Assembly: GCA_022710715.1 (NCBI GenBank)
Contig: JAKLGJ010000001.1
Span: 490,041-554,040 of the forward strand
Direction: 5' to 3'
Origin: Candidatus Omnitrophota bacterium
GTDB taxonomy: Bacteria; Omnitrophota; Gorgyraeia; Gygaellales; Profunditerraquicolaceae
Length of the DNA: 64,000 nt
In this document: piece by piece, positions 837 to 46,182 of the stretch
Layout: every line of letters starts with the position of its first letter
Position numbering within the stretch: position 1 is the stretch's first letter
Translations under genes and position numbers: made by a program
The notes under the pieces: generated by a model
What the model saw: the letters and a program-made list of their open reading frames with translations, nothing else
What the model was told of the DNA's origin: nothing
Database searches by the model: none

Positions 837-1838
837 TTAATCCGGAATCTCGATTTCAAACCCGTGCATGGCGGCCATATTGGCGATATCTTCCATTTTA
901 TCCATGTTGACGTTCTCTCCTAAAGAGAAATTCACGCATTTGTCTTCCAGCGCCAGCAGCATGGCTTCAGCCATGGGGGCGTAAATGGCGTGGTCCGGGA
1001 TCCCCTGATGCAGGCTGATTTTCTGGCCGAGCGGCAGCTTGATGATTCCGCAGTCAAGCACGGTCAGATCTTTGCGTTGTCTGGCTTTTTCCGCCACATG
1101 TTTGAATACCGCGGCGTCGCAGAGTATCGTTTCGGGTTTCACGTCGTTCATATTGAACAGCACACTGGGGCCATTATAAGAGTTCAGGATGATATCCGCC
1201 TGTTTGATCGCTTTGGGCGTGTCTTGCTCGATTTCTATGGGGATGGTATTCGTTTTTCTAAGCAGATCACGCAGGGAATCGAGTTTTTCCGTGGGACCTC
1301 CCGAGAGAATGATCTTGCCCACGTGGTCCGCGAGCTTTCTGGCGCAGAGCGAACTGATGGTGTTTGTCGGGCTGAAAATGGTCAGGGTCGCCGTTTTTAA
1401 ATGCAGATGCCTGTCTTTGGCCGTGCGATAAAGCGCTTCAAATATTGACCAGGCGCTGAAACTGCTGCCGCTGGTTATGGCGGTTTTGACATGTTTGTAG
1501 ATCATGGGTTTTTTATCGGTTGCAGCCGAAAAATAACCGGATACCCCCATGATCTGGGCTTCTAGCTTCCGCGCCAGGTATCCCGCGGAAACGATCTTAT
1601 CCAGTATGGTTTCTTCATCTGTTTCAAAAATCTGTTCCGGCGACATGGGGCAGCAGATCAGAAAACCCTGGATTTCCTTGCCGGAGGCGGATTTGAACTT
1701 TTTGATATGGAGTACTTTAAAATCTTTATTCTTGAGGAATGAGGGAACGACAGAATCCGGAAGTATGGTGGTGATCGGCCAGAAATGCTTTACCTGGCGC
1801 ATGCTGGTGGGGTGAAACAAGAAGGCAAATGTTTTCAT
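837..1838 (-). CDS. acyl-ACP reductase-like (COG5322/AAR family) NAD(P)-binding oxidoreductase homolog
   Basis: N-term FLFHPTS and C-term MAEAMLLALE...NFSLGENVNMDKMEDIANMAAMHGF closely mirror cyanobacterial AAR (GHLTS...[36 protein letters not shown].HGF); the AAR catalytic Cys position reads Pro (IYAPMAEA). Confidence 0.55.
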   Translation of the reverse strand: MKTFAFLFHPTSMRQVKHFWPITTILPDSVVPSFLKNKDFKVLHIKKFKSASGKEIQGFLICCPMSPEQIFETDEETILDKIVSAGYLARKLEAQIMGVSGYFSAATDKKPMIYKHVKTAITSGSSFSAWSIFEALYRTAKDRHLHLKTATLTIFSPTNTISSLCARKLADHVGKIILSGGPTEKLDSLRDLLRKTNTIPIEIEQDTPKAIKQADIILNSYNGPSVLFNMNDVKPETILCDAAVFKHVAEKARQRKDLTVLDCGIIKLPLGQKISLHQGIPDHAIYAPMAEAMLLALEDKCVNFSLGENVNMDKMEDIANMAAMHGFEIEIPD

Positions 1839-2078
1839 TTATCCTCTTGCCGCGCGGTTCCCAATAGATTCTTGCCCTGTTTTTTCGATTCCATGGTGTT
1901 AGAAGACACTTTTTGCTTGATCCAGGTTTCGATGTATTTCTTGTGGAATCTCCAGTCAGTTCCGATTTTAAAAGCAGGAATTCTTCCTTCGCGCGCATAG
2001 CGATGCACGGTAAGAGGGTGAATGTGCAGGTAATCGGCTACCTCTTTTGCTGTAAGAATCTCGTTGCTTTTGGACATA
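1835..2078 (-). CDS. excisionase-family (HTH_17/MerR-superfamily) DNA-binding protein
   Basis: LTAKEVADYLHIHPLTVHRYAREGRIPAFKIGTDWRF HTH. Start chosen at MSKSNEIL (ATG ~2078) with GGTGGTGA RBS; alternative upstream starts at 2098/2143. Confidence 0.6.
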
Positions 2079-33183: not shown

Positions 33184-33606
33184 TTACTTAAGAGATAACA
33201 GGGTGTGCCACACAGGCAGGGAGACGATTTTTCTTCCGAAGAGGATCACCCCGACTGCGATCGCGTTGAGGGACGCGATCAGTACCACCGCAGCCGCGAT
33301 GTCCTTGACCAGTTTGATCAGGATTTTGTATTTACGGGTGAACATGTCGATGGTCATTTCTATGGCGGTATTGAACATTTCGGCCATGAAGACCATGGTG
33401 ATGGTCAGGCAGAGCGTTACCAGTTCCAGTCCGGTTAATGCGCAGTAAATGCCCAGCAGGAATGCGGCGATGCCGCAGAGAAAAATGATGCGCATGTTGC
33501 GGTGATACAGGAACAGATAGAGTAAGCCGTTAAAAGCCAGCCGGAGGCTTTCCCAGAAGCCATGGAACTGGAATATTCGACGGAATATCCGGTAACGTTT
33601 TGGCAT
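33184..33606 (-). CDS. dgkA: diacylglycerol kinase (DgkA family) membrane protein
   Basis: AEMFNTAIE motif and three TM helices. Confidence 0.75.
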   Translation of the reverse strand: MPKRYRIFRRIFQFHGFWESLRLAFNGLLYLFLYHRNMRIIFLCGIAAFLLGIYCALTGLELVTLCLTITMVFMAEMFNTAIEMTIDMFTRKYKILIKLVKDIAAAVVLIASLNAIAVGVILFGRKIVSLPVWHTLLSLK

Positions 33607-33608
33607 AG

Positions 33609-33908
33609 TTATTTTTTGAAGATCACGTAGAGCAGCGCGAGAATCAAGAGGAACGAAACGAGATAAAAATCGTTGAAGTAGATGAAATCGAACAGCTTGT
33701 CCTTCAAAGTGTATTCCTCTGTCCGCGCCGGCACGGTCTTGTTGTGTTTCTTGAATTCCTCGACCTGGTGCTGTTTGAAACGGATATACACTCCCCCGAC
33801 ATTATAGGCCGGGATAGCTCCGGATTCGGCCAGGTCGATGACTTCTTTCTCGGTGATGTTCAACACGTGGGCTACTTCTCTGACCGTCAAGAGCTTGTCT
33901 TCCGCCAT
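33609..33908 (-). CDS. excisionase-family HTH DNA-binding protein with C-terminal transmembrane anchor
   Basis: LTVREVAHVLNITEKEVIDLAESGAIPAYNVGGVYIRF HTH_17 domain plus C-terminal hydrophobic helix FYLVSFLLILALLYVIF. Confidence 0.55.
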   Translation of the reverse strand: MAEDKLLTVREVAHVLNITEKEVIDLAESGAIPAYNVGGVYIRFKQHQVEEFKKHNKTVPARTEEYTLKDKLFDFIYFNDFYLVSFLLILALLYVIFKK

Positions 33909-33910
33909 TC

Positions 33911-34417
33911 TTATCTGCCTATTTTTCCTTCAGCAATCCAGGCGTCGATCGCTTTGCGTTCGAACGTCCAATCGTTGCCCTGTTTGAGCGCGGGGATCCG
34001 TCCGGCATTGGCCCATTCCAGGATGGAATTCATCTCTACTTCCAGATACCGAGCGAGCTCTTCGGCATTAAGCACTTCCGCCAGCATAGAGCATTTTCCT
34101 TCGAATATCGCGCCGGATTCGATACTCAAGCGGACCGGGGAGATATCCCCTTCCACGATGGCGCCCGATTGGAGCAGTAATTCCTGTTTCGCGGTAATCC
34201 TGCCTTTGACCTTGCCGCCGATTACGACTGAATCGCCGCGAATATCGCCCAGAACGACCGCGCCCGGTCCGATAGTCAGGTTGCCTTTTGTTTCGAGATT
34301 CCCTTCAAACTTTCCATTGATGCGCAGGTTGACCGGGTCTTTGAAGGTGAGGTTGCCTTGCATGGAAGCGTCGACATCGAGTATTTTCCCTTCTTCTTTC
34401 TTCGCTTTAAAGGCCAT
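33911..34417 (-). CDS. bactofilin-domain protein fused to C-terminal excisionase-type HTH
   Basis: Beta-helical G-x-V/I repeats (GNLTIGPGAVVLGDIRGDSVVIGGKVKGRITAKQELLLQSGAIVEGDI) then LNAEELARYLEVEMNSILEWANAGRIPALKQGNDWTF HTH. Confidence 0.65.
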   Translation of the reverse strand: MAFKAKKEEGKILDVDASMQGNLTFKDPVNLRINGKFEGNLETKGNLTIGPGAVVLGDIRGDSVVIGGKVKGRITAKQELLLQSGAIVEGDISPVRLSIESGAIFEGKCSMLAEVLNAEELARYLEVEMNSILEWANAGRIPALKQGNDWTFERKAIDAWIAEGKIGR

Positions 34418-34893
34418 TATCTCTTCCCCTCCTTATCTTGTTTCTCACAATCGTTTTTGAATACCGCAGACTCGAATCTGCGCAGAACGAATAAGACGAT
34501 GAGAGTCAGAAGAGTTGTGGTGAGACTGGCGCTGTAAAAACCGCATCCGACCGCTAACCCGATAGCCGAGACAACCCACAGGCATGCCGCGGTGGTCAAT
34601 CCCCGGACTTCAATGGTATCTCTTTCCCGGATGATGGCGCCGGCGCCCAGGAAACCTATGCCGGTGATGACCCCTGCTGCTATCCGGCTCGGGTCGAGGT
34701 TGGCGACATGCCGATACATTTCATATACGTACATCGAGGTGAGCATGATCAGGCATGAACCCATGCAGACCAGGATATTGGTGCGTAACCCGGCGTTCCT
34801 GCGGTTCATCTGGCGTTCGAGACCGATAAGTCCTCCCAATACTACGGAAAGGATCAGTCTGATGCTGACATCGGAATCAGTGAGCATGATCAT
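34417..34893 (-). CDS. mgtC: MgtC/SapB family membrane protein
   Basis: GGLIGLERQ motif and 4-5 TM helices. Confidence 0.75.
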   Translation of the reverse strand: MIMLTDSDVSIRLILSVVLGGLIGLERQMNRRNAGLRTNILVCMGSCLIMLTSMYVYEMYRHVANLDPSRIAAGVITGIGFLGAGAIIRERDTIEVRGLTTAACLWVVSAIGLAVGCGFYSASLTTTLLTLIVLFVLRRFESAVFKNDCEKQDKEGKR

Positions 34894-35854
34894 GTCCTCG
34901 TTTGCGCGCGAGTTTATACAGATGATACCCCAGGCCTGCGACCATAGCGGCGTTATCCATGCACAGGGGTTTATCGGGGAACAGTACCCGGATGCCCCGG
35001 CGGCGCGCTTGTTCCTCGAATTTTTCCCGCAGCACGGTATTGGCTGCGACTCCCCCGCCGACAGCCAGCGTATCCGTTTTCTTTATTGTACAGGCTAATA
35101 GCGACTTGTCAACCAAAGTGTTGAGCGCGGCGTCCTGAAAAGAAGCGCAGATATCGGCAATGCGTCGGCGTTCAGCCGGGTGTTTCTGCGTATAATAGAG
35201 CACGGCGGTTTTAATGCCGCTGAAGCTGAAATCCAGAGGCGCTTTGGTATTTGAGCAGCTGAAGCGGATAGCCCGGGGATCGCCGGCGCGCGCGCGTTTT
35301 TCGATGACCGGTCCTCCGGGATATCCCAGTTGCAGGATTTTTGCGACTTTGTCGAACGCTTCGCCGCAGGCGTCATCCTGGGTAGAGCCGAGCAGCTTGA
35401 GGTCCAGGTAATCTTTCAGGTAGTACAGGCTGGTATGTCCGCCGGAAACGATCAGGCCGACGCAGGGGAACCGGACCGTGTTTTTTTTACCCAGAAAACA
35501 GGCGTAGATATGGCTGTACAGATGGTCGACCGGGACCACCGGGATGCCCAGGGCCAGCCCAAGGGCCCTGGCAAACGATATGCCGACCAGAAGCGAGCCC
35601 AGCAGCCCGGGTTTTTCGGTGAAAGCAATGGCGGCGATATCCCCGCGGCGCACCCCTGCTTCGTGGAAAGCGCATTCCGCCACTTCGCTGATGGTCTCGA
35701 GTTGTTTGCGAAAGGCTATCTCCGGCACGATGCCGCCGTATTTCCGGTGAAAGGCGACGCTTGATGAGACCACGCTCGAGCGGATCAGCTTGCCGTCGCT
35801 TACCACGGCGCATGCCGTTTCGTCGCAGGAAGTTTCGATGCCGAGTATATGCAT
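34877..35854 (-). CDS. tsaD: tRNA N6-adenosine threonylcarbamoyltransferase
   Basis: MHILGIETSCDETA N-terminus and Kae1/TsaD ASKHA fold. Confidence 0.9.
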   Translation of the reverse strand: MHILGIETSCDETACAVVSDGKLIRSSVVSSSVAFHRKYGGIVPEIAFRKQLETISEVAECAFHEAGVRRGDIAAIAFTEKPGLLGSLLVGISFARALGLALGIPVVPVDHLYSHIYACFLGKKNTVRFPCVGLIVSGGHTSLYYLKDYLDLKLLGSTQDDACGEAFDKVAKILQLGYPGGPVIEKRARAGDPRAIRFSCSNTKAPLDFSFSGIKTAVLYYTQKHPAERRRIADICASFQDAALNTLVDKSLLACTIKKTDTLAVGGGVAANTVLREKFEEQARRRGIRVLFPDKPLCMDNAAMVAGLGYHLYKLARKRGHDHAH

Positions 35855-40995: not shown

Positions 40996-41120
40996 ACTAT
41001 CCCTCCTTGTAAAAGTATTGTATCGGCGATTGGGGAGTAAGTCAAGTCAAGAAATTAGTGGACAAATCGGGCAGAATAGGTACAATAACATCATTGATTT
41101 TACGAAAGGAGCAATGCGCA

Positions 41121-44100
41121 ATGAGCAAAGGTTCTCTCTATACTAATAAGATTAACTACCACCTTAACAAAGACGGTGAATTTATTATCGAAAATTACAA
41201 TTACGCCAAGCCTCTGGCGAACTTCTTTCCCGGCATTGCCGGGAAATACGGCATTCCCATGTGGGTTTTTTACGTCAACCGCGGGCAGGCGATCAACAGT
41301 TTCGGCACGGACGGTAAAGACTCCGCGATCCTGGAATTCCAGCCTGCCAATAAAGCCTGGCAGACGACTTCTCTCAACGGGTTCCGCACTTTCATCAAGC
41401 TTTCTCAAGCGAACAATGAAATCTTCTATGAGCCGTTCCACGACGGTATCGTTAACCGGTCTTTTGCGATCGCCAATCAGATGGCCATGTCTTCCTGCGA
41501 GCTGCGCCTGGAAGAATCCAACGCTACGCTGGGCTTAAAGACCACGGTAGAATATTTCACTATCCCGCAGGAGTGTTTCGCCGCCCTGGTCAGGATCGTC
41601 ACCATTACCAATACCGCCCGGAAACGCCGTTCGCTGCAGGTGCTTGACGGCTTGCCGCAGATCATTCCCTACGGGATCGCGAATCTCTTTTTGAAGAAGC
41701 TAAGCCGCACCATCGAAGCCTGGATGGGCGTGGAGAATCTCGATACCGGCGTGCCGTTCTACAAGGTTGACGTGGATCCCATCGACCGACCCCAGGTACT
41801 GCATATCAAAGGCGGCAATTTCTATTTGAGTTTTGTCCGGGAAGGCAAGAAAGCCAGAATCATCAAACCCATCGTCGATCCGGATGCGATTTTCGGGCAG
41901 ATCAGCGATTTTTCCTGTCCGCGCGCGTTCCTGGACAAGAAACGCTTTACCTATCCGGCCGGGCAGCAGACTCAATGCAAGACGCCCTGCGGCTTTACTC
42001 CCCTTTCCCTGGATCTGGCGCCGGGAGCATCGCAAACTTTTTGTACGGTGATCGGCCACGCCCGCAATGTCAGGGTAATGAACGCGTCGGTGAAACGCAT
42101 TATCGCTCCCGGGTATCTGGAAGCGAAAAATCAGGCTAACAAACGTTTGATCGCCGAGTTGCAGTCGGATGTCGAGACCGGAAGCAGTTCCTGGGAGTTC
42201 GATTATTACTGCAAACAGACCTATCTGGATAATATCATGCGCGGCGGATACCCGGCGTTGTTCGGTTCCGGCGCCGACGCCAAGGTTTTTTACCTCTACT
42301 CCCGCAAGCACGGAGACCTGGAGCGCGATTATAATAAGTTCCAGATACAGCCGACCTATTTCTCGCAGGGCAACGGTAATTACCGCGACATGAACCAGAA
42401 CCGCAGGTGCGATGTCTGGTTCAATCCCGGTATCAAGGATTTCAACATTATCACGTTTTTCAACCTGCTGCAGTCCGACGGTTTCAATCCTCTGGTGGTC
42501 AAAGGCGCGACGTTCAGCCTGAAAAATAAGGACGCATTCGCCGAACAGCTGCGCCTGATCGCCGCCGAAAAGGATATCGCGTTGATCCTGGGCTTACTGG
42601 AAAAACCGTTTACTCCCGGCCAGGTGATCATGGACATCGAGGAGCATAACTGTAAGCTCAAACTCTCCCACGACGACTTCCTCACCCTGCTCTTCAGCCA
42701 TTCAGTCAAGAATCCGGAGGCTGATCACGGCGAGGGTTTCTGGATCGACCACTGGCATTATAATCTTGATCTGATCGAAAATTTCCTGGCGGTGTATCCG
42801 GAGAAGCTCAAAGAACTGGTCTTCGAGAAGAAAGTATTTACCTTCTACGATAACGATTCGGTAGTCCGGCCGCGCAGCGAAAAATACATACTGCTGGACG
42901 GTCATCCGAAGCAATTACATTCCGTAGCGCATAGTCCGGAAAAGAAAGAGTTGATCGGCGCGAGGCTTTCTTCGCCGCATACCCTGCGCACCGAATACGG
43001 CAAAGGCGATGTTTATACCTGCACCCTGATCAACAAGCTTTTCTGTCTGCTGGTGAACAAACTCGCTTCTTTTGACCCGGCCGGCGCAGGCATCGAAATG
43101 GAAGCGGATAAGCCCAACTGGTTCGACGCGTTGAACGGTTTGCCCGCGCTTTTCGGTTCATCCGCCTGTGAAACATTCGAACTCAAACGGCTGATCCTCT
43201 TTATCCGGGACGCGTTACGCGTTTCCGGGGTACAACAGTTCAGCCTGACCGAAGAAATATACGATTTCCTGCAGGGGCTGACTGCCGCATTGCGCGATTG
43301 GGAGCGCTCCAACGATAAGAATCGGGATATGCTGTATTGGGATGCCAGCGCCACCCTGAAAGAGGAATACCGGGCCAGGACTACCTTCGGCTTCAAGGGC
43401 GGTGAAAAACAGGTTTTTGCCGGAGATATGCCGGCGGTGCTCGAACTCGCTTTGAAAAAGACCGACAGCGGCATAGCTAAAGCGCGGGACGAAAAGAAAA
43501 GCCTTTATTACGGCTATTTCATCAATGAAGTCACGGCTTTCGAGAACATCGACGCAACCCGCATCCGGCCGACTCAATTCGCGCAAAAACGCGTTCCTTT
43601 GTTCCTGGAAGGGCTGATGCACGCCATGCGCCTGACCGAAGACAAAGAACACGCGCATGCCATTTACAAAGCGGTTAAAACCAGCGAGCTGTACGATAAG
43701 GAATTGCAGATGTACCGGGTTACCGCCTCCCTCGCTTCCATGCCGGAAGAAATCGGCCGGTGCACCGCTTTTACCCCGGGCTGGCTGGAGAATCAGTCGA
43801 TCTGGCTGCATATGGAGTATAAATACCTGCTGGAGTTGTTGCGTCAGGGAATCTATGAGGATTTCTTCGCGGATTTCCGGAAAGTGCTTATTCCTTTCCT
43901 GAAACCCGAGCGTTACGGCCGCAGTATCCTGGAGAATTCTTCTTTTCTGGTAAGCAGCGCTTTTCCGTATAAACAATTGCATGGCAACGGTTTCGTTGCC
44001 CGGCTGTCCGGTTCGACCGTAGAATTCTTGAGCATGTGGTTATTGATGAATCTCGGCAGGCAGCCGTTCTTCCTTAATGATAAGCAGGAATTGAACCTGC

Positions 44101-44363
44101 GTTTCGCTCCGGCTTTGCCCGGATGGCTTTTCGACAAAAAAGGCAAAACGTACCGCTTCACCCTGCTGGGCCGCATTCCGGTGGTCTATCATAACCCGCT
44201 GTTGAAGGATGCCTTCGGCAGCCAGGGGGTAAAACCGGTTAAAATCACCCTTAACTATAAGGATAATAAGAGCGTAACTATCCTTTCCGATACCTTATCT
44301 GTCTCGTACGCGCATCAAGTGCGTAACCTGGAAGTTACCTCCATCAAAGTTGATTTGGCTTGA
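41121..44363 (+). CDS. large cytoplasmic (alpha/alpha)6 glycoside phosphorylase/hydrolase-like protein (GH94/cellobiose-phosphorylase-like, tentative)
   Basis: 1080 aa, no signal peptide; NWFDALNG resembles GH94 DWNDGLN general-acid motif; other candidate catalytic stretches GNGNYRDMNQN and GFWIDHWHYNLD. Start set at MSKGSL with AAAGGAG RBS. Confidence 0.35.
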   Translation: MSKGSLYTNKINYHLNKDGEFIIENYNYAKPLANFFPGIAGKYGIPMWVFYVNRGQAINSFGTDGKDSAILEFQPANKAWQTTSLNGFRTFIKLSQANNEIFYEPFHDGIVNRSFAIANQMAMSSCELRLEESNATLGLKTTVEYFTIPQECFAALVRIVTITNTARKRRSLQVLDGLPQIIPYGIANLFLKKLSRTIEAWMGVENLDTGVPFYKVDVDPIDRPQVLHIKGGNFYLSFVREGKKARIIKPIVDPDAIFGQISDFSCPRAFLDKKRFTYPAGQQTQCKTPCGFTPLSLDLAPGASQTFCTVIGHARNVRVMNASVKRIIAPGYLEAKNQANKRLIAELQSDVETGSSSWEFDYYCKQTYLDNIMRGGYPALFGSGADAKVFYLYSRKHGDLERDYNKFQIQPTYFSQGNGNYRDMNQNRRCDVWFNPGIKDFNIITFFNLLQSDGFNPLVVKGATFSLKNKDAFAEQLRLIAAEKDIALILGLLEKPFTPGQVIMDIEEHNCKLKLSHDDFLTLLFSHSVKNPEADHGEGFWIDHWHYNLDLIENFLAVYPEKLKELVFEKKVFTFYDNDSVVRPRSEKYILLDGHPKQLHSVAHSPEKKELIGARLSSPHTLRTEYGKGDVYTCTLINKLFCLLVNKLASFDPAGAGIEMEADKPNWFDALNGLPALFGSSACETFELKRLILFIRDALRVSGVQQFSLTEEIYDFLQGLTAALRDWERSNDKNRDMLYWDASATLKEEYRARTTFGFKGGEKQVFAGDMPAVLELALKKTDSGIAKARDEKKSLYYGYFINEVTAFENIDATRIRPTQFAQKRVPLFLEGLMHAMRLTEDKEHAHAIYKAVKTSELYDKELQMYRVTASLASMPEEIGRCTAFTPGWLENQSIWLHMEYKYLLELLRQGIYEDFFADFRKVLIPFLKPERYGRSILENSSFLVSSAFPYKQLHGNGFVARLSGSTVEFLSMWLLMNLGRQPFFLNDKQELNLRFAPALPGWLFDKKGKTYRFTLLGRIPVVYHNPLLKDAFGSQGVKPVKITLNYKDNKSVTILSDTLSVSYAHQVRNLEVTSIKVDLA

Positions 44364-44428: not shown

Positions 44429-44612
44429 AATATATATACCCGTGGGCTTGAAATCTGTACATTTTGTGTTATACTTAAAGTGTAATAAGCGAACTTTGAC
44501 AGATCAGTTCCTACTGATAAAGGCTAACTAGCAGTAATGCTGGGGCGCAAAGCGACAGTTCTTCTGTTTGTGCAGAAGAAGGCTGCGTTACCAAAGAGGA
44601 CGTATTCCTGAA

Positions 44613-45255: not shown

Positions 45256-46182
45256 ATGCGTAACGTACTTCTGGCCGCAGTCCTGGCAAGTGTTTTGTGT
45301 TCTTGCGTATACGCTGAACAAGCCACTAAAATGCTGGTAGAAACACCGCCGCAGGAAACGATATTCGTCGCTGAAAACGAAGCGCAGGTGCCTGCTGCCC
45401 GCTATCCCAAATTCGCTGAATTTTCCGGGGATAATCCTAACTGCGAGGCGTATTTACAGACCGATTATTCCGGTTCGGGTGATGAAGCCGACGGAATCGC
45501 CCAGAACGGTTTGAGCCAGGCTCCCTTGAACCTGCGCAGCAAGATGGGGTCGGGATCCGCTACCGGCTCAAAGATGCAGTTTGTCTCGATTAGCGAACAG
45601 GGCAGCAACAAGCCGTTCGCCGTCGACAATTACCAGATCCCTGCGGAGTATCGCAAGACCGCCAAGCTGCTGATCAGCTGGACGGTGCGTATCGAAGGAT
45701 GGGAAACTCCCGGCATGAACATCAGCCCGGGATTATGCAGCAACTGGTATGGAACGTCCATACAGGAATTCCCTGCCAACGACGTCAAGCTGGGGTTGTT
45801 CATTACCGATCATAATCAAGAAGTCCGCAAAGGCGCGGAAGGTTCTTTGACCATTCCTCCCGGCCCGCCGCAGGAGATTATTCAGGTTCCTCCTCCTCCG
45901 CCAAGCCCAAACGTGCCAAGCAATGATGGAAGCTCTCAACCCGCGAATTCTGACTGGGGACCGAACAACGGCGCGCCTCCCTTCGATCTCTCGGATCCGG
46001 TTATCAGCGGCAGTTACCTGTTGAGCCCTTCAGATTTCGAAAACGGGGAATTTCCCGAGGTCATCAGGCGTATAGAGATCAAATGGCAGAATCAGACGTC
46101 GCAGATTCTGGTTTCTCCGGCAAAAATGCGCACCCTTACGATCATGCTTATGCCGACGGGCAAGGAGAGTTCGGGGAATTAG
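45256..46182 (+). CDS. secreted Pro-rich hypothetical protein
   Basis: AAGGAGG RBS; signal peptide MRNVLLAAVLASVLCSCVYA; PPGPPQEIIQVPPPPPSPNVPS linker. Confidence 0.55.
   Translation: MRNVLLAAVLASVLCSCVYAEQATKMLVETPPQETIFVAENEAQVPAARYPKFAEFSGDNPNCEAYLQTDYSGSGDEADGIAQNGLSQAPLNLRSKMGSGSATGSKMQFVSISEQGSNKPFAVDNYQIPAEYRKTAKLLISWTVRIEGWETPGMNISPGLCSNWYGTSIQEFPANDVKLGLFITDHNQEVRKGAEGSLTIPPGPPQEIIQVPPPPPSPNVPSNDGSSQPANSDWGPNNGAPPFDLSDPVISGSYLLSPSDFENGEFPEVIRRIEIKWQNQTSQILVSPAKMRTLTIMLMPTGKESSGN

Follow-up and report, generated by a model that had tools for sequence, protein, structure and literature searches.

What does a cell do with a bactofilin that carries a helix-turn-helix (HTH) domain in the same polypeptide and is encoded directly beside a second, membrane-anchored protein with an HTH of the same type? 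The question is raised by two adjacent minus-strand genes in a 64,000-nucleotide stretch of DNA (hereafter the window; contig JAKLGJ010000001.1) from a Candidatus Omnitrophota bacterium. Gene A (33911..34417) encodes a 168-residue fusion of a bactofilin and a winged HTH (wHTH), and gene B (33609..33908) a predicted tail-anchored membrane protein of 99 residues with an N-terminal wHTH. Both were delineated from open reading frames (ORFs), Pfam matches and AlphaFold2 models, and the coordinates and strand proved correct in an initial annotation, which had read the pair as a DNA-binding bactofilin next to a membrane-tethered DNA-binding partner. Bactofilins are widespread, poorly understood scaffolds for which client choice and the connection to the chromosome are open questions. 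In A a folded client-type domain is part of the same chain, and B is a strictly co-inherited, minimal membrane partner; the pair thereby presents a clean case for asking whether polymer-borne wHTHs achieve DNA binding through avidity or have been co-opted to couple proteins. We tentatively favour, with a probability of roughly 0.35, the reading that A and B form a membrane-bound bactofilin scaffold with a dedicated tail-anchored partner, coupled to each other via their wHTH modules, with DNA tethering as a possible output.

By every feature of sequence and fold that can be compared, A is a bactofilin. Residues 12-109 (34091..34384; all coordinates within A and B are on the minus strand) match the Bactofilin family PF04519 (E 1.5e-25, 89.8 bits against a cutoff of 27.9), and the same core finds Caulobacter crescentus BacA (2n3d, E 1.8e-10) and the Thermus thermophilus bactofilin (6ria, E 3.9e-8) in sequence comparisons. 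A Foldseek search of the PDB returned 2n3d and 6rib with target TM-scores (template modelling scores) of 0.77-0.82. In the AlphaFold2 model, built from a 24-sequence alignment with a mean predicted local distance difference test score (pLDDT) of 83.5, a beta-helix is followed by a wHTH; the all-beta domain spans residues 12-106 at a pLDDT of ~90, and residues 1-10 are disordered. Phe105 (34103-34105) aligns with BacA Phe130 and Thermus Phe105, where Arg mutants block polymerisation (PMC12448750), and the equivalent position is hydrophobic in all 79 orthologs in which it was located (Leu 41, Phe 33, Met 3, Ile 2). Codons 1-7 (MAFKAKK, 34397..34417) resemble the published bactofilin membrane-targeting consensus MFSKKKK, in which Phe2 and Lys4/Lys7 of BacA are critical (PMC12448750). 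Orthologs of A begin with MAFKKK in 40 of 80 loci, and nearly all others are similar (M-x-F/L plus Lys/Arg), which marks the N-terminus as a candidate membrane-targeting peptide. Polymerisation and peripheral membrane binding of A are therefore well-founded predictions.

The second half of A sets it apart from canonical bactofilins. These share with A the right-handed beta-helix core, the hydrophobic Phe130/Phe105 position, the short N-terminal Phe and Lys peptide and a membrane-protein gene as neighbour, but in A a folded wHTH on a short, conserved linker of ~6 residues (C-x-M-L-H-D-F-L-N in orthologs) replaces the C-terminal tail. The wHTH occupies residues 115-164 (33926..34075). Its HTH character had been left by the initial annotation to a profile search, which the segment passes: residues 116-164 match HTH_17 (PF12728) with E 2.5e-11 and 44.1 bits against a cutoff of 27, and A also exceeds the cutoff of the NCBIfam 'excise' domain TIGR01764 (30.7 against 28.8 bits). 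AlphaFold2 predicts a strand-helix-helix-strand-strand-helix topology (115-162), and Foldseek against the PDB finds RdfS, BldC, Pukovnik Xis and RacA at root-mean-square deviations (rmsd) of 1.5-2.1 Å, with the protein-binding relatives CbpM and Rpp also among the structural neighbours. A profile match to BldC was obtained at E 0.0025.

Gene B repeats this module in a different setting. Its wHTH (residues 6-54, 33747..33893) matches HTH_17 with E 1e-9 (38.9 bits, cutoff 27), exceeds the TIGR01764 cutoff (37.2 against 28.8 bits) and superposes on BldC with an rmsd of 1.1-1.2 Å over 50 residues, Xis and RacA being the next Foldseek hits. The MerR/excisionase-type fold first proposed for both HTHs is thus supported by HTH_17, TIGR01764, AlphaFold2 and the structural matches to BldC, Xis, RdfS and RacA. 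A profile-profile comparison of the two wHTHs (hhalign) gave a probability of 97.6% at 23% identity, which indicates that they are homologous, but that the domain of B is no recent copy of that of A. Residues 55-73 of B form a basic linker, followed by a juxtamembrane motif, D74-F-x-Y-F-N-D-F-Y82 (linker and motif together 33663..33746, defined from orthologs and AlphaFold2), and by a hydrophobic C-terminal helix (residues 83-97, 33618..33662). The AlphaFold2 model of B (35 sequences, mean pLDDT 83.0) consists of the wHTH (6-55), a flexible linker and two helices (68-78 and 80-98). Across 79 orthologs the linker averages ~20 residues and a net charge of +2.4, and the motif DFxYFNDFY is invariant or nearly so, with D74, F75, Y77, D80 and F81 invariant in 35 homologs. 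Of 80 orthologs, 79 have their 19-residue Kyte-Doolittle maximum (1.9-2.9) at the C-terminus, the other being cut by the contig end, and only 1-3 residues follow the hydrophobic helix. These features strongly support B as a tail-anchored inner-membrane protein with its wHTH on the cytoplasmic side, and the domain architecture first proposed for both proteins, a bactofilin plus HTH in A and the same HTH type plus a C-terminal transmembrane helix in B, is borne out by Pfam, AlphaFold2 and hydrophobicity. The obligatory partner of this bactofilin is accordingly a tail-anchored wHTH protein and not, as in canonical systems, an enzyme with a cytoplasmic tail.

Is this fusion, and its pairing with B, more than a local curiosity? 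A is 100% identical to the database entry P0001, named 'polymer-forming cytoskeletal protein [Candidatus Omnitrophota bacterium]'; this database name is automatic, as is 'excisionase family DNA binding protein'. In a word-indexed search 2576 database clusters match A, and the best 120 are ~167 residues long, 66-73% identical and contain both Pfam domains without exception. When 1.84 billion cluster representatives were searched exhaustively with HMMER, 20 matched at E < 1e-30; among the representatives that were aligned, ~20 are full-length fusions of 29-56% identity, in which the inter-domain linker is usually longer. The co-occurrence of bactofilin and HTH_17 domains is far above chance. One protein of the same bactofilin subfamily, P0151, carries the N-terminal xDVxAxMQG...PVNLRI signature and is fused to PilZ instead of a wHTH (Bactofilin 86 bits, PilZ 39.6 bits), which suggests that the subfamily exchanges C-terminal adaptor domains. 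As the initial annotation had supposed, such fusions are poorly described: the literature searched contained no description of the fusion or of the A-B pair.

The pairing itself is strict. In a species-representative scan (one genome per GTDB species) at least 383 stretches encode a relative of A; the locus counts given here refer to the best 80. Essentially all of these come from Omnitrophota bins, across which the fusion is ~70% identical. Some bins are labelled 'Margulisiibacteriota' or 'uncultured Planctomycetales' (L036; also L001, L006, L010, L015, L016 and others), and these labels on operon-bearing bins are probably labelling or binning artefacts. In 80/80 loci A is followed directly, on its own strand and mostly after a gap of 1-40 nt, by an ortholog of B with 48-64% identity, and these loci also preserve the wider order gatB-ctp-(x)-tsaD-mgtC-A-B. 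B likewise follows A immediately in three distant relatives, examined through their contigs, in which A is 37-48% identical and the surrounding genes differ: TsaD-A-B in L083 (44%), BatD-TPR-MgtC-A-B-PDZ in L085 (48%) and SPOR-TPR/PDZ-A-B in L087 (37%). The downstream proteins of all three score above the HTH_17 threshold (30.6-34.8 bits) and end in a hydrophobic helix, so that the architecture of a wHTH plus a C-terminal helix extends to these lineages. The reading offered at the outset depended on the pair being conserved in related genomes, and on this point the 80 loci and the three distant lineages agree with it. The A-B pair is thus a phylum-wide feature of Omnitrophota that resides in a housekeeping operon and not in a mobile element. 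Because the pairing persists in lineages of 37-48% identity with different surrounding genes, we argue that the two products work together; because they are strictly co-inherited although each alone could reach the membrane, we further argue that they act on each other. Conservation at ~70% identity in a housekeeping operon across a candidate phylum suggests a core cellular function.

Whether the two wHTHs can read DNA is the point on which the possible explanations diverge. In BldC the phosphate contacts are made by Ala15 (through its backbone), Thr27, Thr29, Lys33 and Trp31, the base contacts by Lys26 and Arg30, and the wing contacts by His46, Arg47 and Arg48; R30A and H46E abolish DNA binding, and RacA uses the equivalent arginine (PMC5859096). 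We summed the charges at ten positions, namely the BldC contacts minus Trp31 plus Arg41, a basic wing residue of our own choosing, as placed by HMMER and MAFFT alignments of these short domains. The sum is +6 for BldC, and +4 each for Pukovnik Xis and RacA. A third HTH_17 protein in the window, a canonical stand-alone protein of 80 residues (1835..2077, minus strand; Pfam HTH_17, 58.7 bits), served as an internal control; the paralog had been reported before with its end one base off, at 2078. Besides A and B orthologs, a survey of 0.97 Mb of Omnitrophota DNA for other HTH_17 proteins recovered only this one, and the control family was therefore built from its database homologs. It has 618 homologous clusters, from Omnitrophota and some other bins, and among the matches listed are 120 at 69-95% identity; homologs are typically 74 residues long. 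BldC-like in size, it may function as a small conserved regulator or be associated with the nucleoid. The contact-charge sum of this family is +5 in 120/120 homologs, and the net domain charge +2 to +5.

The values for A and B are clearly different. In 81 locus orthologs and 120 database homologs of A the contact-charge sum is -1 to +1 and the net charge of the wHTH -2 to -5; for B the sum is 0 to +3 and the net charge -3 to +2. The equivalent of the essential Arg30 is acidic in 81/81 A orthologs (Glu 67, Asp 14), and the equivalents of Lys33 and Lys26 are both mostly Asn; Ser131 (Thr27), Trp135 (Trp31), Lys145 (Arg41) and Lys/Arg151 (Arg48) are retained. In B the Arg30 equivalent is Asp/Asn/Glu in 80/82 orthologs, and the equivalents of Thr27, Arg30 and Lys33 are Glu, Asp and Glu, an acidic stripe which, being spaced i, i+3, i+6, would run along the face that the recognition helix turns to DNA. 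B keeps Lys21 (Lys26), Lys36 (Arg41), an invariant Arg43 (Arg48) and an invariant Arg10 at the N-terminus of helix 1. Across the wider fusion family the fused wHTHs are mostly acidic, down to -11. Canonical DNA reading by the wHTH of A in this clade thus appears unlikely and that by the wHTH of B ambiguous, while weak, avidity-dependent DNA binding by either would be possible. The term 'DNA-binding' in the initial annotation had rested on the family name and is, for A, not supported by these residues; for B, which keeps several basic residues, they leave it ambiguous. More generally, an annotation as 'HTH/excisionase family DNA-binding protein' can hide domains without a DNA-binding face.

The charge patterns bear directly on the explanation closest to that annotation, in which both wHTHs bind chromosomal DNA and the bactofilin polymer plus tail-anchored B make up a minimal two-protein device that anchors or positions the chromosome at the membrane, similar in function to RacA-DivIVA or BacNOP-PadC-ParB. 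Both domains score above the curated HTH_17 and 'excise' thresholds; their nearest solved structures are the DNA-bound BldC, Xis and RdfS and the chromosome-anchoring RacA; the residues retained in A and B include several that contact DNA in BldC; some distant fusions have canonical basic recognition helices; and avidity of the polymer could compensate for weak sites, just as the bactofilin membrane-targeting sequence, itself weak, relies on it (PMC12448750). A core cell-cycle role would also be in keeping with the strong conservation of the pair in a housekeeping operon. Set against this are the replacement in both proteins of the arginine that is essential in BldC, the Asn (A) or Glu (B) in place of Lys33, the acidic net charge of the A domain, and the third HTH_17 protein, evidence that this phylum does preserve a basic face where one is required. 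Obligatory pairing would, moreover, go unexplained if either protein alone could link DNA to the membrane. Chromosome anchoring by the pair is accordingly possible, not the sole reading and perhaps not the best one, and we consider direct tethering by both wHTHs somewhat doubtful.

The systems with which such a device would be compared differ from A-B in informative ways. RacA of Bacillus subtilis, which turns up as a neighbour of both wHTHs in structure and in sequence, also joins a MerR-like wHTH to a self-associating domain and is linked to the membrane; it does so through a coiled coil and DivIVA, where A-B has a bactofilin and a transmembrane partner, and its DNA-reading arginine (the BldC Arg30 equivalent, PMC5859096) is Glu/Asp in A and Asp/Asn/Glu in B. 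A-B shares the fold of the RacA-like anchors and lacks their arginine and coiled coil, and is no member of that group. In the BacNOP-PadC-ParB/ParA system of Myxococcus xanthus (PMC5703909) a bactofilin scaffold is likewise connected to DNA-associated proteins, but the connection in A-B would be direct, through the fused wHTH and with no adaptor. A Pfam search detected no ParA, ParB or PadC family member, and no PadC/ParB-like domain, among the genes called within 10 kb either side of the pair, nor any in L083, L085 and L087; the analogy that had been drawn with this system is for that reason conceptual only. BldC, RdfS and Pukovnik Xis, the closest solved relatives of both wHTHs, are small MerR-like wHTHs without a coiled coil that form head-to-tail oligomers. 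They are free-standing proteins with a basic contact charge of +4 to +6, whereas A and B are near-neutral or acidic and fixed to a polymer and to the membrane, respectively.

We therefore return to the preferred reading, in which the wHTHs couple the bactofilin scaffold to its tail-anchored partner. A would polymerise on the cytoplasmic face of the membrane and thereby display a regular array of wHTH modules; since bactofilin filaments are non-polar (PMC12448750), the modules would emerge paired at each tail-to-tail junction. The acidic wHTH of A, which lacks the basic DNA-contact residues, would for this reason serve mainly to dock the wHTH of B, the basic linker of B or some other partner, and not to read DNA in the conventional way. 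B would act as an integral membrane anchor or nucleator of the A polymer and, with its conserved Arg10, Lys21, Lys36, Arg43 and basic linker, would be the more plausible of the two to make a weak nucleic-acid contact. Clustering of B by the polymer could then produce a multivalent, low-affinity membrane attachment, whether the client is the nucleoid, a different polyanion or a protein. CbpM, Rpp and the BacR-bactofilin interaction are precedents for protein contacts made by wHTH or HTH domains, and by analogy favour coupling. The wHTHs of BldC (PMC5859096) and RdfS (PMC11963761) work as head-to-tail oligomers, and in B. subtilis bactofilins contact BacR, an HTH regulator, close to its HTH, keep it from binding DNA and bring it to the membrane (PMC13649987). 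At 168 and 99 residues the module is small and should suit study in heterologous hosts and in vitro.

Several points weigh against this reading. The contact between A and B is one we infer by analogy, and polymerisation, membrane binding and topology are all carried over from homologues. A covariation analysis of 79 A-B pairs (mutual information with average product correction) reached top z values of 4-5, the same range as the A-MgtC and A-TsaD controls, and so contains no usable A-B signal. Alignments place Glu opposite Glu/Asp where the head-to-tail salt bridge Arg22-Glu16' of BldC would have to form between the head of A and the tail of B, so that a BldC-like contact is not simply transferable to the pair. 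The very short linker between beta-helix and wHTH might interfere with the tail-to-tail interface. Finally, the closest solved sequence relatives of both wHTHs are all true DNA binders, and the distant fusions P0133 and P0140 carry Arg/Lys at the recognition positions, which perhaps points to an ancestral, and possibly persisting, DNA-binding role of the fused wHTH.

The BacR precedent also supports a different arrangement, a switch of the BacR-BacE/BacF type, in which one wHTH, most likely that of B, is a transcription factor gated by membrane tethering and by sequestration on the polymer, with the wHTH of A masking its DNA face. BacR (YhbD) is, like B, an HTH protein encoded beside bactofilins that is bound near its HTH and held at the membrane with a loss of DNA binding (PMC13649987); the acidic character of A, the basic contact residues kept in B and the tight packing of the two genes would suit such a mechanism. 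Yet BacR is a soluble, DNA-binding DUF4004 dimer (~29 kDa as the tagged Geobacillus protein), whereas in the present pair one of the HTHs is part of the bactofilin chain and the other tail-anchored, and neither A nor B matches DUF4004 in Pfam at E up to 1. B would be permanently anchored, with no obvious signal for cleavage or release, and the pair, where intergenic gaps measure 1-2 nt, has no promoter or operator region of its own beside it, the promoter scan described below not rising above chance. On balance we regard a switch of this kind as improbable.

The genes around the pair raise the question whether nucleic acid is involved at all. In the window the order is gatB-ctp-tsaD-mgtC-A-B-dgkA (also given as gatCAB-ctp-...), with hardly any spacers. 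The mgtC-family membrane protein gene (34417..34893, minus strand; Pfam MgtC, E 7e-43) is overlapped at its start by tsaD (34877..35854, minus) and at its stop codon by the start codon of A, in the sequence TAATG at 34415-34419 (minus). B starts 2 nt past the stop codon of A, and the final gene of the operon, a dgkA-type diacylglycerol kinase gene (33184..33606, minus; Pfam DAGK_prokar, E 2e-26), 2 nt past that of B; the tight packing of A and B suggests co-translation. MgtC directly precedes A in most of the 80 loci and has no match in four (L014, L027, L029, L030), while L063 starts too near A for its presence to be judged; among the distant lineages it is present upstream of A in L085 and absent in L083 and L087. 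The TAATG overlap and the retention of MgtC in L085 despite an otherwise changed synteny hint at a functional MgtC-A-B trio. dgkA follows B immediately in 14 of the 80 loci. A gene of ~0.8 kb between ctp and tsaD in most of L001-L080 and in L083 is absent from the window, where ctp abuts tsaD; in L083 (L083:4084-4929) it belongs to the Polysacc_deac_2 family.

Such a neighbourhood fits an explanation in which the wHTHs are pure protein adaptors and the pair is an envelope or morphogenesis scaffold comparable to BacA-PbpC, BacA-LmdC or CcmA-Csd5/7, with B, and perhaps MgtC, as partners in the membrane through which very small cells would organise their division or functions of lipid or envelope. 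The wHTH surfaces are acidic; the flanking genes encode membrane and envelope proteins, namely MgtC (translationally overlapped with A), DgkA, the Ctp protease and, in L083, a polysaccharide deacetylase; the MgtC-A-B order survives in L085, and SPOR and PDZ proteins adjoin the pair in L087. Links between bactofilins and integral membrane clients recur in the literature (PMC12448750; PMC13649987), and the invariant aromatic and acidic juxtamembrane motif of B would also fit. The neighbours on which this argument leans are, however, inconstant, given the loci without MgtC and the low proportion in which DgkA directly follows B. Furthermore, B has no periplasmic or enzymatic domain and would make no typical 'client', and two wHTHs above the family threshold would be an unusual choice for purely protein binding. 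An explanation that dispenses with nucleic acid altogether thus also seems somewhat doubtful to us, as doubtful as direct tethering. The alternatives named here, coupling, DNA tether, protein scaffold and switch, overlap.

It is tempting to speculate further that the pair is a phylum-wide, nucleotide-independent coupler of chromosome and membrane, or, in a variant, that the acidic wHTH of A is a DNA mimic which gates DNA binding by B; we consider this an unlikely extension. If it were true, the filament would present paired wHTHs at fixed spacing, locked to tail-anchored B, and the nucleoid or a specific locus would be held at the membrane of very small cells without adaptors of the ParABS type. 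In the DNA-mimic variant, the assembly of filaments would act as an on-off switch for DNA attachment or transcription.

The names of the matching families suggest one more origin, a remnant of a mobile element or defence system, either as an excisionase or recombination directionality factor or as Mad1 of the MADS system. The supporting matches are at the level of names (TIGR01764 'excise', NCBIfam MADS1, PADLOC mad1 and PHROG excisionase families), reflect the fold and do not discriminate among the three HTH_17 proteins of the window. The NCBIfam MADS1 match reaches 45.4 bits against an equivalog cutoff of 80, and PADLOC mad1 scores ~26-30 bits, roughly equal for the three proteins. An identity as Mad1 was rejected on this score and on a neighbourhood that holds no methyltransferase or other MADS genes, and an identity as excisionase or directionality factor on the conserved housekeeping operon and the lack of an integrase within 10 kb either side; Xis and RdfS differ from A-B also in this recombinase context. 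The neighbourhood likewise offers no att-like context. Given the synteny conserved over 80 loci and the generic nature of the matches, we reject such an origin, whose likelihood is close to negligible.

Some smaller observations concern the locus and its relatives. A scan for promoters and terminators between 32.5 and 41.5 kb gave counts no higher than in shuffled controls, and the transcription unit is therefore defined by gene packing alone. A sigma-70-like site within tsaD (35085-35112, minus strand), ~190 nt upstream of mgtC, agrees with 11 of 12 consensus positions (TTGACA, 16 nt spacer, TACAAT) and could be an internal promoter for mgtC-A-B-dgkA, in a region where the promoter count is not above chance. 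An antisense ORF overlapping A and B (33744..34460, plus strand, 238 residues) was treated as spurious because the conserved products lie on the minus strand. The window contains no second bactofilin gene elsewhere.

A more distant paralog of the fusion, 29% identical, occurs in L086 (L086:1-6850) amid genes for positioning or cytoskeletal functions: an actin-like protein (Pfam Volactin), a fusion of a ParA-type ATPase with an AMPK1_CBM glycogen-binding domain, and a membrane protein of the MamF_MmsF family. The gene downstream of this paralog encodes a membrane protein without an HTH. A link to magnetosomes, hinted at by a faint MamR match of B (E 0.0078) and by the MamF_MmsF and actin-like genes of L086, was set aside as irrelevant to A-B, as the MamK-family match in L086 is weak (21 bits against an NCBIfam cutoff of 400) and the downstream gene is not an HTH protein. 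Farther along the window, just past a 1101-codon ORF (41058..44363) whose called product has no Pfam match, we found a c-di-GMP-I (cyclic diguanosine monophosphate) riboswitch aptamer at 44512-44595 on the plus strand (Rfam RF01051, 63.1 bits against a gathering score of 35), which lies upstream of the ORF 45256..46182.

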